A stretch of DNA of 43,716 bases from a virus. The first letter of the stretch is position 1. Each line of letters begins with the position of its first letter. The DNA is taken from positions 1-43,716 of the IMG/VR virus record IMGVR_UViG_3300018476_000018; one strand, 5' to 3'. Of the stretch, positions 1 through 635 are shown in pieces. The translations under genes were made by a program, and so were the position numbers. Under the pieces are notes generated by a model that searched no databases, was not told the origin of the DNA, and saw nothing but the letters and a program-made list of their open reading frames with translations.

Positions 1-123
1 CCCGGCTCAGGGATCTCCTGCGCCGTCACGATGGTCTGCGCCCGCCCGACCAAGGAGCCCCCGGCAACCAACGTGCCGGTGGTGCCGAGGCTCATCGAGT
101 AGAGGTCGGCATCGACGAAGGCG
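1..123. repeat. Terminal direct overlap, copy 1. Identical to 43594..43716, so the genome is circular or circularly permuted and was closed by assembly.
   Basis: Base-by-base comparison of the two window ends. Identity covers exactly 123 nt and stops at 124 / 43593. Confidence 0.95.
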
Positions 124-635
124 CCATTGAAGGTCTGGTTAAAGCTGTCGGTTTGACCGACGGCGTTTGCCGTCAGCGTCGCCAACTGGGTGCCCGGCAG
201 GTCGGTCGGGTCATCGGCCCCCTGTGCATTCGCCGTGTCGCCGTAAAAGGTCAGCGTGGCGCTTGAACCGATCGCGGACTGAAACGTGCCGGACCCCGCT
301 GCACTGAACGCCGATACCGGGCCGACAAAGTCGGTGCCGCTGATGGCTACGGTGATCGGGACCGACACGGCGTTGGTGTTGATGATCTGAAAGCTGGCGG
401 TATTTAACGAGTTGAGCGGCCCGATGGTCTGGGTCTGGGCCGAGCCCAGGACCTGCACGCCGGCAATCGTCTGATCGGCGATGGACAAGATGCCGACTGC
501 CGGGTTGGTATCGCACGCGGCGTTGTCGACGCAGTTGAACACCGTGCCGTTGATGTTCGACGACAGTTGTAGCGTGGCGAAGGCCGGCGTGCTGGCAACG
601 AGCAGCGCAACTGCCGGCAGCGAGATCCACCTCAT
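1..635 (-). CDS. PEP-CTERM sorting-signal secreted protein, 5' part. The 238-aa CDS runs 635->1 and continues 43593->43512 across the circular junction.
   Basis: ATG at 633-635 with AGGAGA 7 nt upstream. N-terminal signal peptide MRWISLPAVALLVASTPAFA. The frame stays open to the window edge, and the joined length is 717 nt (238 codons plus stop). The ORF track missed it because it wraps. Confidence 0.75.
   Translation of the reverse strand, partial: MRWISLPAVALLVASTPAFATLQLSSNINGTVFNCVDNAACDTNPAVGILSIADQTIAGVQVLGSAQTQTIGPLNSLNTASFQIINTNAVSVPITVAISGTDFVGPVSAFSAAGSGTFQSAIGSSATLTFYGDTANAQGADDPTDLPGTQLATLTANAVGQTDSFNQTFNGAFVDADLYSMSLGTTGTLVAGGSLVGRAQTIVTAQEIPEP

Follow-up and report, generated by a model that had tools for sequence, protein, structure and literature searches.

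A PEP-CTERM protein encoded across the circular junction of an uncultured phage genome, and the phage clade to which it belongs

Background

Sorting by the PEP-CTERM/exosortase system is widespread in environmental Gram-negative bacteria, where it is linked to the formation of biofilms, flocs and EPS. The EpsH/XrtA exosortase system was reportedly described by Haft and colleagues, and to our knowledge the biochemistry of exosortases is largely unsolved with respect to the attachment partner of the cargo and its final location. PepA of Zoogloea resiniphila is a floc-forming PEP-CTERM protein. Phages and prophages also encode proteins that are delivered to the cell envelope by host pathways. In Staphylococcus aureus, SasX is a prophage-encoded LPXTG surface protein and the product of a lysogenic-conversion gene, while Llp of T5 and Cor of phi80 and N15 are small early phage lipoproteins that use a lipobox and the Lol pathway and target FhuA.

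Here we analyse a protein of 238 amino acids encoded in the IMG/VR virus record IMGVR_UViG_3300018476_000018, whose whole length of 43,716 nucleotides is called the window below. Like cellular PEP-CTERM proteins such as PepA, it combines a signal peptide, a Thr/Ser/Gly/Ala-rich body that is probably surface-facing and, at the extreme C-terminus, a PEP motif, a membrane helix and a basic cluster in that order; unlike them, it is phage-encoded, present in a single copy and has no exosortase or EPS genes nearby. As far as can be read from its sequence, it resembles SasX in being phage-borne cargo with a C-terminal sorting signal, presumably delivered to the surface by a sorting transpeptidase of the host, whereas SasX is a sortase/LPXTG substrate of a Gram-positive envelope that acts in lysogenic conversion, and the window protein bears an exosortase-type PEP-CTERM tail in a genome where lysogeny genes were not found. 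Llp and Cor serve us as the working analogy, in that the window protein may likewise reach the surface by an envelope-sorting route of the host and there hinder further adsorption; it differs from them in lacking a lipobox, and FhuA is the target of Llp and Cor.

No family for the window protein is present in PHROGs or PADLOC, and tblastn gives no match to it in 50,697 GenBank phage records or in the PLSDB plasmids. Literature searches that combined PEP-CTERM with phage, prophage and viral contigs, or that used EDSAP-1 and PEPxxWA, returned no description of phage-encoded PEP-CTERM proteins; the nearest case is a PEP-CTERM domain match in a mobile element of Dehalococcoides (bioRxiv 10.64898/2026.09.15.751708). 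The remark in an earlier note on this DNA, made from the letters of the sequence, that such proteins are not a recognised phage gene class therefore holds as far as checked. The window protein belongs to a phage clade of PEP-CTERM proteins that is spread across many unrelated uncultured phages and is, as far as we found, undescribed in papers and phage protein databases.

The gene and the circular junction

The first 123 bp of the window are repeated exactly and in direct orientation at its end. This repeat is the assembly overlap of a circular or circularly permuted genome and adds no extra sequence. The genome in the window is complete, with a circular assembly of about 43.6 kb (43,593 bp after circularisation), and belongs to a podovirus-like tailed phage. 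When the contig is re-circularised, as the earlier note had advised, the minus-strand reading frame that it had described as hidden by the junction is recovered (Table 1). The ORF track misses this gene because it runs off the contig end; near the junction its only entries are a fragment of 58 aa (43512-43688) and a spurious ORF in an alternative frame (211-750). A mis-joined overlap had been named as the finding that would undo this reading. It did not occur: a Logan contig of independent origin (L091, 2,606 bp, run SRR6958482) aligns with the junction gap-free at 99.92% identity and carries the uninterrupted 238-aa PEP-CTERM gene, then rusA, then a methyltransferase gene. Mis-assembly of the junction is excluded because this contig crosses it without interruption. 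Moreover, all family copies run full length through the equivalent point in the 90 fetched loci and 120 database homologues examined.

The gene lies within a replication/recombination operon, with intergenic gaps of 18 nt on its 5' side and 6 nt on its 3' side. Both its claimed place between a hypothetical gene and rusA in an early or recombination operon and the claimed Shine-Dalgarno sequence are confirmed by the ORF positions, by the PHROG match of the resolvase and by the letters upstream of the start codon. The upstream ORFan has no match in Pfam, PHROG or PADLOC, and the rusA product of the independent contig is annotated PF05866. Simple sigma-70 and intrinsic-terminator consensus scans, which phage-specific signals would escape, find no promoter or terminator of the gene's own nearby on the minus (coding) strand. 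An assignment as a phage moron, that is, an independently transcribed accessory gene, was rejected in view of this lack of an own promoter- or terminator-like site in consensus-pattern scans and of the short flanking gaps.

Table 1. Features of the PEP-CTERM gene and its surroundings (window coordinates)
Feature	Position	Strand	Remarks
Junction-spanning ORF	635 to 1, then 43593 to 43512	-	238 aa
PEP-CTERM gene, 5' part	1..635	-	codons 1-211 and two bases of codon 212; ATG 635-633; from circularised translation, homologue alignment and L091
PEP-CTERM gene, 3' part	43512..43593	-	last base of codon 212 to codon 238; stop codon 43514-43512
Shine-Dalgarno AGGAGA	643..648 (complement)	-	7 nt 5' of the ATG; read from sequence
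Sec-type signal peptide (predicted)	576..635	-	residues 1-20; predicted cleavage between AFA and TLQ; from sequence features and conservation
Mature beta-sandwich body (predicted)	15..575	-	residues 21-207; near-invariant Cys35/Cys41 pair; almost no Lys/Arg
PEP-CTERM signal, start	1..14	-	residues 208-212 (I-P-E-P-G); TIGR02595 and PF07589
PEP-CTERM signal, remainder	43536..43593	-	residues 212-231; Gly/Leu-rich membrane helix and basic cluster YRRRN
Upstream ORFan, 144 aa	654..1088	-	same operon; ends 18 nt 5' of the PEP-CTERM ATG
RusA-like Holliday-junction resolvase	43005..43505	-	starts 6 nt past the PEP-CTERM stop; phrog_140, E 6.7e-31
Assembly overlap	43594..43716	.	exact copy of window 1-123; single copy in L091

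Signal peptide, body and sorting tail

The N-terminus, MRWISLPAVALLVASTPAFA followed by TLQ, has the usual n, h and c regions and an A-x-A site, and the motif around the predicted cut is well kept among the 73 unique family sequences (A18 in 68, A20 in 71 and L22 in 68). This agrees with the Sec signal proposed in the earlier note, and the protein is probably exported by means of this predicted signal peptide. A unimolecular spanin of the T1 gp11 type was considered and dropped, there being no Cys at the cleavage site and the holin-like ORF (6635-6862) lying about 6 kb away.

The mature body consists to 47% of Thr, Ala, Gly and Ser, with no Lys and a single Arg, and AlphaFold2 models it as an all-beta sandwich over residues 22-206 (mean pLDDT 92.3, pTM 0.83), so that the Thr/Ser/Gly/Ala-rich beta-type body foreseen from the letters is also what the model predicts. 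Foldseek searches of PDB and BFVD yield only generic beta-sandwich or jelly-roll neighbours at TM-scores of at most 0.45, including carbohydrate-binding modules and phage tail tips; the top match is Bdellovibrio Bd1399 (8okh; TM-scores 0.31/0.40, rmsd 10.7), which is a secreted protein of unknown function. A profile search of PDB with the family alignment gives no match even at E up to 10. Assigning a function from fold neighbours was dropped, as these matches are weak and generic and no ligand or activity can be read from them. A body-only HMM, built to test an origin from a tail-fibre tip or a kinship with the second PEP-CTERM gene described below, detects no hidden homologues of the body among all ORFs of the window and the loci.

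At the C-terminus, both profiles of the sorting signal match residues 208-231 above their curated cut-offs, TIGR02595 with 23.6 bits (cut-off 16) and PF07589 with 30.9 bits (cut-off 20.7, E 2.6e-7), and these scores lie well beyond chance. The PEP-CTERM signal that had been read by eye is thus found by the very HMM search that could have contradicted it. The tail IPEPGSLLLLGTGLLGFGWLYRRRN stops 7 residues short of the stop codon, and a C-terminal helix is modelled by AlphaFold2 at residues 212-235. The window motif is PEPGSLLL; E210 and P211 are invariant (73/73 unique family sequences) and P209 is kept in 69 of the 73, and E-P stays invariant while body identity falls to 38%.

Named PEP-CTERM families do not accommodate the protein. 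EDSAP-1 (NF041538) is the best body-level match (residues 53-231 against profile positions 131-307 of 307, E 1.3e-8), and membership was rejected at 34.9 bits against a cut-off of 100 with the N-terminal 130 profile positions absent, which leaves a distant relative at best. The PEPxxWA-CTERM variant (NF035944) was likewise rejected, given the PEPGSLLL tail and the absence of NF035944 from the matches listed at E up to 10.

Spread of the lineage in phages

The protein belongs to a family of about 240 amino acids with two lineages, of which the one containing the window protein bears the classical PEP-CTERM tail. IMG/VR holds 106 relatives, and the fetched loci represent 62 clusters at 90% identity. 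Each of the 90 fetched copies is full length, with signal peptide, xEP, helix and basic tail, and dN/dS ranges from 0.06 to 0.35 in 20 phage-phage pairs. By these sequence comparisons, the gene is functional in phages and under purifying selection.

We read 13 genomic contexts, namely nine of the classical-tail lineage outside the window (eight phage-like, one mobile-element-like) and four chromosomal. Six of eight looked-up classical-tail homologues adjoin phage structural or replication genes of varied types: terminase/HNH; thymidylate synthase/ligase/SNF2; DNA polymerase A/primase; Phage_portal_3; baseplate wedge with sheath initiator; and an HK97-type portal/protease with integrase. A further context shows small ORFs and an HNH gene (L092), and the mobile-element-like one (L098, classical tail) has small ORFs without phage hallmark genes. 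One locus, L094, comes from a relative that is syntenic with the window phage; its PEP-CTERM protein is 85% identical, and larger shared proteins are 43-65% identical. Most loci have only the PEP-CTERM gene in common with the window; across the phage loci the only recurring neighbour is a second PEP-CTERM gene, whose unrelated product is often encoded in a tandem pair with the first.

The chromosomal sister lineage

The tail of the sister lineage is of the PEPxxW(A) type. In the four contexts read (L089, L095, L096 and L097), this lineage occupies a chromosomal locus of Roseiarcus-like Alphaproteobacteria, and the gene order dnaG-rpoD-[PEP-CTERM cluster]-MmcB-GMC oxidoreductase-Opp is conserved in all four. 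Its proteins share with the window protein their length, the signal peptide, the Cys pair and the beta-sandwich body; they differ from it in lying at a housekeeping locus, in having 2-4 adjoining PEP-CTERM genes and in the tail. Body identity between the two averages 44% and reaches 68%, the closest cellular lineage lying at 44-58%.

The tail flavour of the phage lineage differs from that of its closest cellular relatives. A classical tail is found in 111 of the 120 listed matches to the window protein and a PEPxxWA tail in none of these 120, while a PEPxxW-type tail occurs in at least 93 of the 120 listed matches to the chromosomal copy. When the body alone is compared, every sequence (284 of 284) finds its nearest neighbour within its own tail class. 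Since tail flavour tracks genomic context, the tail type may name the exosortase class.

A claim that the family is almost exclusive to phages was ruled out by the 3,465 relatives that a search with the chromosomal copy returns and by the conserved chromosomal locus, and is limited here to the classical-tail lineage. The statement in the earlier note that PEP-CTERM proteins are chromosomal host proteins stands for the PEPxxW(A) sister lineage and fails for the classical-tail lineage, which lies in a phage or mobile element in every context read. A scan of 185,579 GTDB species genomes with two patterns gives two matches, a count to be read as that of an insensitive scan because the same patterns recover only 32 of 80 listed IMG/VR loci.

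Proposed mechanism and alternatives

We put the chance at roughly 55% that the window encodes a phage-borne PEP-CTERM envelope protein that is sorted by the exosortase of the host and alters the surface of the infected cell. The gene would be co-transcribed with the ORFan and rusA during infection, as suggested by the tight packing and by a Shine-Dalgarno sequence of its own with no promoter- or terminator-like site beside it. The product would be exported by Sec and cut after AFA20. To judge from the model and from conservation, its body may then adopt a beta-sandwich fold in the periplasm, acidic and with hardly any Lys, and is probably braced by a Cys35-Cys41 disulfide. As the established model of PEP-CTERM/exosortase sorting has it, the protein would be held in the inner membrane by its C-terminal helix and RRR cluster until the host exosortase recognises the invariant (P)EP, and cleavage would be followed by transfer to the outer surface or the exopolysaccharide layer. 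An exosortase-like gene would be expected to show as an ORF with at least four predicted membrane helices, and none was found in the window or in the flanks at the phage loci; as the phage has no exosortase-like protein, the sorting step would depend on the host. The dependence on a host exosortase and the prediction of an exosortase-positive host, both made in the earlier note, are reasonable inferences.

The last step is the least certain one, in which the surface protein would change the properties of the coat. Its most likely effect would be to mask or alter a surface or EPS receptor, so that adsorption of other phages, or of the phage's own progeny, to infected cells and their debris is prevented. 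Superinfection exclusion, as the earlier note had suggested, is a plausible guess. The other role that it proposed, lysogenic conversion, is unsupported for this phage: neither integrase nor repressor families were detected in the window (about 30 ORFs, including every ORF of at least 250 aa, against Pfam and/or PHROGs, with few ORFans left), and the gene, with no promoter- or terminator-like site of its own, is tightly packed in a lytic-type one-strand operon. The similarity of the body to the chromosomal protein is consistent with a phage variant of a host surface component that might insert into the same structure. We infer that the function is a host-exosortase-dependent change to the surface of the infected cell; taken alone, the sequence fits receptor masking, aggregation, matrix remodelling and exosortase blockade alike.

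Aggregation is an unlikely alternative, in which the protein would act as a matrix factor like the Zoogloea PepA, binding exopolysaccharide and sticking infected or lysogenic cells to their neighbours, with the benefit of fresh hosts near the burst or of fitter lysogens. The C-terminal quarter is indeed weakly similar to flocculation-associated PepA (NF033554, 31.2 bits), but this is far under the cut-off of 80 and the match covers residues 186-232 only, mainly the sorting tail, because of which the protein is not assigned to PepA. Carbohydrate-binding modules are among the nearest fold neighbours of the body, but these matches are generic (TM-score at most 0.45). An EPS-rich host is suggested by a group of glycan-active and tail-fibre genes in the window, and at least one carrier of the family (L008) encodes an integrase; against this, no integrase was found in the window phage, and the operon that holds the gene is early and of lytic type.

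Rather improbable is that the protein never meets an exosortase and stays in the periplasm with its helix as a plain inner-membrane anchor, where it might for example block DNA injection by other phages, as Imm and Sp of T4 and SieA of P22 do. The predicted topology before processing is indeed that of a type-I anchored periplasmic protein, and the phage lacks an exosortase-like gene. However, the invariance of E-P at the membrane boundary and the scores of both profiles above cut-off are unexpected for a plain anchor, and the tail of the chromosomal sister lineage is of another recognised exosortase type (in L089, NF035944 scores 36.6 bits, cut-off 35), which shows that being sorted is the normal fate of the body.

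Still less probable is a decoy, by which the protein, made early and in bulk, would occupy the host exosortase, so that host PEP-CTERM proteins remain unprocessed and the EPS-protein coat is weakened, either easing release or blocking rival phages that use the coat. In favour of a decoy, the (P)EP motif and the helix are strictly conserved even as the body diverges, tandem pairing with the unrelated second PEP-CTERM protein is frequent, and the gene is apparently expressed with an early operon, judged from gene position and from the promoter and terminator scans. A pure decoy, however, has no need of a well-folded body under purifying selection, and we know of no precedent for one. Finally, the reading of a passenger gene captured recently from a host without a phage role, or of mis-joined contig ends, to which the position on the assembly overlap and the existence of cellular homologues might point, has a negligible chance and is already contradicted by the contig crossing the junction, by purifying selection in the 20 phage-phage pairs, by the same position and 85% identity in the diverged relative L094, by the 62 clusters (90% identity, fetched loci) on unrelated phage backbones, and by a closest cellular lineage only 44-58% identical in the body and with another tail.

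Returning to host-exosortase sorting of a surface-altering protein, the phage clade suggests that phages use exosortase sorting to alter the infected-cell surface, and its repeated retention under purifying selection with its spread over unrelated genomes indicates a pathway worth exploiting in infection. A broader proposal, which we hold tentatively and with somewhat more doubt than belief, is that of a dedicated, horizontally mobile class of exosortase cargo in phages of EPS-producing environmental bacteria, consisting of a beta-sandwich that derives from a host surface protein and bears a classical tail, in many cases with another PEP-CTERM protein as its partner, that rebuilds the surface of the infected cell for superinfection exclusion or matrix control. 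If this is true, exosortase sorting is a target of phage manipulation, and studies of exosortase mechanism gain a small, well-folded and portable natural substrate, for which the window protein, with 238 amino acids in a single, confidently modelled domain, could be the model.

The phage and its possible host

The window phage encodes a portal protein, large and small terminase, major capsid protein, scaffold, ejection protein and tail fibre, and further RusA, a RecE-like exonuclease and a DNA methyltransferase; its credible genes all lie on one strand, and its portal and capsid proteins match their podovirus counterparts at 33-48% identity. No tRNA genes, as a clue to the host, are found in the window. 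Three observations hint at the host, none of them decisive: one related phage-like contig falls into the bin of a Rhodospirillales MAG, the closest cultured homologues of the capsid protein include those of Sinorhizobium and Bradyrhizobium phages (42-45% identity), and the cellular sister lineage is alphaproteobacterial. As a host-range marker, the PEP-CTERM gene could allow hostless metagenomic phages to be assigned to exosortase-positive bacteria. The case of this gene also illustrates that ORF callers systematically miss genes across the arbitrary break points of circular viral contigs.

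The PEP-CTERM gene across the circular junction

Bases 1-123 of the window are identical to its last 123 bases, which gives a circle of 43,593 bp. On this circle the PEP-CTERM ORF is read on the minus strand from the ATG at 635 to base 1 and on from 43593 to the stop codon at 43514-43512, altogether 238 codons, and AGGAGA precedes the ATG with a spacer of 7 nt. The overlap and the re-circularised translation thus bear out the ORF across the junction proposed in the earlier note. Because the gene runs off the contig end, it is absent from the ORF listing, which at this locus shows merely a 58-aa tail fragment and an alternative-frame ORF at 211-750. 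The latter (minus strand, 179 aa, GTG start) overlaps the PEP-CTERM gene, is displayed in the ORF track instead of it and draws tblastn matches in seven loci; since these are explained by conservation of the underlying DNA and nothing else, we reject it as spurious.

Mis-assembly had been named as the main way in which this reading could fail. L091, an independent 2,606-bp contig of a Logan assembly (run SRR6958482), encodes exactly the 238-aa product, with the gene unbroken and followed by rusA and then a methyltransferase gene; it aligns over its full length with the re-circularised window at 99.92% identity, gap-free and junction included, showing that the two halves are contiguous. The overlap is as long as the largest k-mer, 123, in a MEGAHIT k-list that JGI has used, and would be in keeping with a circle in the assembly graph, not with physically repeated ends.

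Sorting signal, body and predicted fold

On residues 208-231 of the protein, TIGR02595 gives 23.6 bits (cut-off 16) and PF07589 gives 30.9 bits (cut-off 20.7), so that the PEP-CTERM domain read from the bare sequence passes the HMM check proposed with it, both scores being above the curated cut-offs. The tail is IPEP-GSLLLLGTGLLGFGWLY-RRRN, and the N-terminus, MRWISLPAVALLVASTPAFA/TLQ, has the form of a typical Sec signal, A-x-A site included. None of the NCBIfam PEP-CTERM subfamilies accepts the protein, the best being EDSAP-1 with 34.9 bits versus a cut-off of 100. Judged by sequence, the window protein has every feature expected of a PEP-CTERM protein and is a member of no named subfamily.

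The mature body is acidic and 47% Thr/Ala/Gly/Ser, with no Lys and one Arg. AlphaFold2, run on a 120-sequence alignment, yields a confident model (pLDDT 92.3, pTM 0.83) with a 13-strand beta-sandwich at 22-206 and then a single helix at 212-235; sequence features, composition and model all agree with the Sec signal peptide and Thr/Ser/Gly/Ala-rich beta body described earlier. A PDB sequence-profile search with the family gives no match, and Foldseek finds generic beta-sandwiches only (TM-score at most 0.45), namely Bdellovibrio Bd1399 (a protein whose own function is unknown), carbohydrate-binding modules and phage tail tips. The fold is thus a secreted beta-sandwich without a specific structural relative, and it reveals no activity.

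Genomic surroundings

The window is a phage. Its portal and capsid proteins match their podovirus counterparts at no more than 33-48% identity (these podoviruses include LUZ24-like Pseudomonas phages, Pelagibacter HTVC106P, Sinorhizobium phiM5 and a Bradyrhizobium phage), and all its credible genes lie on the minus strand. Along the transcribed direction the gene for the DUF5131 protein comes first, followed by the 144-aa ORFan, the PEP-CTERM gene, rusA, the methyltransferase gene and the exonuclease gene. Only 18 nt and 6 nt separate the PEP-CTERM gene from its two neighbours, and scanning of the coding (minus) strand around it found no promoter-like or terminator-like site; therefore the gene lies within the replication/recombination operon and is no self-contained moron. 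Its placement in the early operon between a hypothetical gene and rusA accordingly stands. A scan of about 30 window ORFs, among them all those of 250 aa or more, detects neither an integrase nor a repressor family, and the window has no tRNA genes. Lysogenic conversion, one of the roles suggested before, is thus unsupported for this phage, given the absent integrase and repressor matches and the position inside the operon. In addition, no window ORF has four or more predicted membrane helices, which indicates that the phage brings no exosortase-like protein.

Features of the window and of related loci (Lxxx, database loci with family homologues)
Locus	Feature	Coordinates	Strand
Window	427-aa DUF5131 protein	1085-2368	minus
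Window	short ORFs, candidate switch region	3100-5700	
Window	HTH DNA-binding protein	3730-4146	
Window	sigma-70-like promoter match	4378-4406	plus
Window	major capsid protein	18742-19698	minus
Window	scaffold	19784-20848	minus
Window	portal	21622-24087	minus
Window	large terminase	24306-25886	minus
Window	tail-fibre-like and glycan-active block	26007-35156	minus
Window	tail-fibre PHROG matches	26007-27554	minus
Window	LtfC-like protein (weak match below cut-off)	27988-28647	minus
Window	WbsX-like protein, Tat-like N-terminus	28644-29831	minus
Window	865-aa ORF	within 26007-35156	minus
Window	552-aa protein, alpha-L-arabinofuranosidase B catalytic domain	33498-35156	minus
Window	Sf6-type small terminase	35993-36508	minus
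Window	RecE-like exonuclease	40615-41778	minus
Window	DNA methyltransferase	41896-43008	minus
Window	48-bp tandem repeat in methyltransferase gene	42446-42571	
Window	RusA	43005-43505	minus
Window	ejection and internal virion proteins, tail-fibre genes	several sites	minus
L001	second PEP-CTERM gene	10811-11602	
L005	second PEP-CTERM gene	981-1679	
L006	second PEP-CTERM gene	10816-11607	
L009, L010, L015-L017, L023, L024, L027, L046, L065	second PEP-CTERM gene, directly downstream		
L094	P0130, family member as publicly called	10001-11542	
L089	chromosomal PEP-CTERM cluster	6414-12820	
L095	chromosomal PEP-CTERM cluster	7468-11610	
L096, L097	chromosomal PEP-CTERM cluster	10001-12196	

Phage-borne relatives

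The window protein has hundreds of homologues, all of about 220-260 aa, the best 120 at 51-86% identity. Genomic context was read for eight homologues with the classical tail of the window protein, and six of the eight adjoin phage structural or replication genes, on differing backbones. The neighbours in these six are a terminase gene and HNH (L001); thymidylate synthase, ligase and a SNF2 helicase (L002); DNA polymerase A with a primase (L004); Phage_portal_3 (L005); baseplate wedge and sheath initiator on a myovirus of about 125 kb, which turns up in 95 blocks of the collection (L006); and an HK97-type portal and protease along with an integrase (L008). In the seventh, L092, the gene lies among small ORFs with an HNH gene. 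The eighth, L094, is genuinely related to the window phage and shares the layout of its early region; its PEP-CTERM protein is 85% identical, the larger shared proteins 43-65%.

In IMG/VR there are 106 relatives, and 80 of them were fetched. By tblastn with all window proteins, most of the 90 loci share only the PEP-CTERM gene with the window. All 90 copies are full length, with signal peptide, xEP, helix and basic tail; clustering of the fetched copies gives 62 groups at 90% identity and 38 groups at 70%, and dN/dS is 0.06-0.35 (20 pairs). E210 and P211 do not vary in any of 73 unique sequences and P209 is conserved in 69 of them, whereas the bodies diverge to as little as 38% identity. The full-length copies, the dN/dS and the invariant motif are evidence that the gene is functional in phages.

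The view that this is not a recognised phage gene class holds up in the resources searched: PHROG has no family for the protein and PADLOC no model, 50,697 GenBank phage records and 72,556 plasmids give no match, and full-text literature searches brought up no account of PEP-CTERM proteins encoded by phages. The one case that comes near is a PEP-CTERM domain match in a Dehalococcoides mobile element (bioRxiv 10.64898/2026.09.15.751708).

When neighbouring ORFs are clustered, only one conserved neighbour emerges: about 16 loci have a second PEP-CTERM gene just downstream of the first. Its product (232-283 aa) follows immediately after the first and is above the TIGR02595 cut-off for L005 and L046, with a body of no detectable relationship to that of the first family; the window is without it. 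As for P0130, the public call is 513 aa, its first 273 residues being low-complexity read-through of an open high-GC frame, and the real start, MKWLSLP, comes after an RBS-like stretch, a case of start over-calling in high-GC phage DNA.

A chromosomal sister lineage

A scan of GTDB species genomes with two strict peptide patterns gives two loci only, but the same patterns recover just 32 of 80 listed IMG/VR loci, and a database search from the chromosomal copy L089 gives 3,465 relatives; the family is therefore not phage-exclusive. At least 93 of the best 120 L089 relatives have a PEPxxW-type tail, with close variants besides, and contigs of tens to hundreds of kb carry many of the listed matches. 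With NF035944 (cut-off 35) the L089 copy reaches 36.6 bits. All four chromosomal contexts read (L089, L095, L096 from a Roseiarcus sp. MAG, and L097) are one conserved housekeeping locus, dnaG-rpoD-[2-4 PEP-CTERM genes]-MmcB-GMC oxidoreductase-Opp transporter. This Roseiarcus-like alphaproteobacterial cluster has PEPxxW(A)-type tails, and one gene in it corresponds to the phage family on the cellular side.

Among the best 120 homologues of the window protein, on the other hand, 111 have the classical tail and none PEPxxW. The nearest neighbour by body alone has the same tail class for each of 284 sequences, a neighbour-joining tree of the body needs only about three tail-class changes, and bodies are on average 52% identical inside the classical class, 62% inside PEPxxW and 44% between the two. 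As one predictive test of the split we chose P0224, the classical-tail protein closest to the chromosomal lineage; it lies outside the housekeeping locus, in a setting of small ORFs that resembles a mobile element (HTH_17, VapC50_C) and has no phage hallmark genes. Tail class, context and body thus support one beta-sandwich cargo in two lineages, one chromosomal with the PEPxxW(A) tail, the other borne by phages or mobile elements with the classical tail and including the window. The earlier statement that PEP-CTERM proteins are chromosomal host proteins is right for the former and fails for the latter. On the whole, a known sorting signal and cargo type is seen in a new, apparently widespread phage-borne lineage; the identity of the protein is solid, and its distribution across phages is unexpected.

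Possible role in infection

The analysis establishes the structure of the gene and its place in the operon, the signal peptide, fold and sorting motif of the protein, purifying selection and the spread among phages, and the PEP-CTERM/exosortase model, reportedly described by Haft et al., suggests how the protein would act. It would be exported via Sec and retained in the membrane by its C-terminal helix with the RRR cluster cytoplasmic; the host exosortase would recognise and cleave it at the PEP motif, and it would be delivered to the outer surface or EPS layer. The nearest functional analogies are phage-borne cargo of other host sorting systems, namely prophage LPXTG proteins such as SasX and phage lipoproteins such as Llp and Cor. 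Work on Zoogloea PepA is cited in PMC12642866.

Our favoured reading, speculative and drawn by analogy with T5 Llp and Cor, is that the protein may alter the surface of the infected cell and block further adsorption, as superinfection exclusion or by protecting progeny from debris. We favour it because the gene is apparently co-expressed with early genes, is retained in phage-like contigs whether or not an integrase is detected in them, and has a body copied from a host surface component and since diverged. A role in aggregation or the matrix seems unlikely. Slightly less probable is an exosortase-independent periplasmic role, since the invariant E-P speaks against a plain membrane anchor. Least probable of these three is that the protein serves as an exosortase decoy, the good conservation of the folded body speaking against a pure decoy.

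Other features of the window

The two terminase genes are about 10 kb apart, with tail-fibre-like and glycan-active genes between them, several of whose products have signal-peptide-like N-termini. This position is unusual for a receptor-binding/depolymerase module, and the block hints at an EPS-rich host. The region at 3100-5700, in which no repressor or integrase family is recognised, may be a regulatory switch region; it holds short ORFs, the HTH protein and the sole sigma-70-like promoter match, and L094 has small genes in divergent orientation at the corresponding place. The DUF5131 protein (PF07505, 138 bits; phrog_2045), whose gene is the second one upstream of the PEP-CTERM gene, has further matches at E about 1e-39 to PDC-M41B and PDC-M30B, both PADLOC models for candidate defence systems. 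In addition, the in-frame repeat inside the methyltransferase gene (2.6 copies, 87% matches) would encode a 16-residue repeat in mid-protein.
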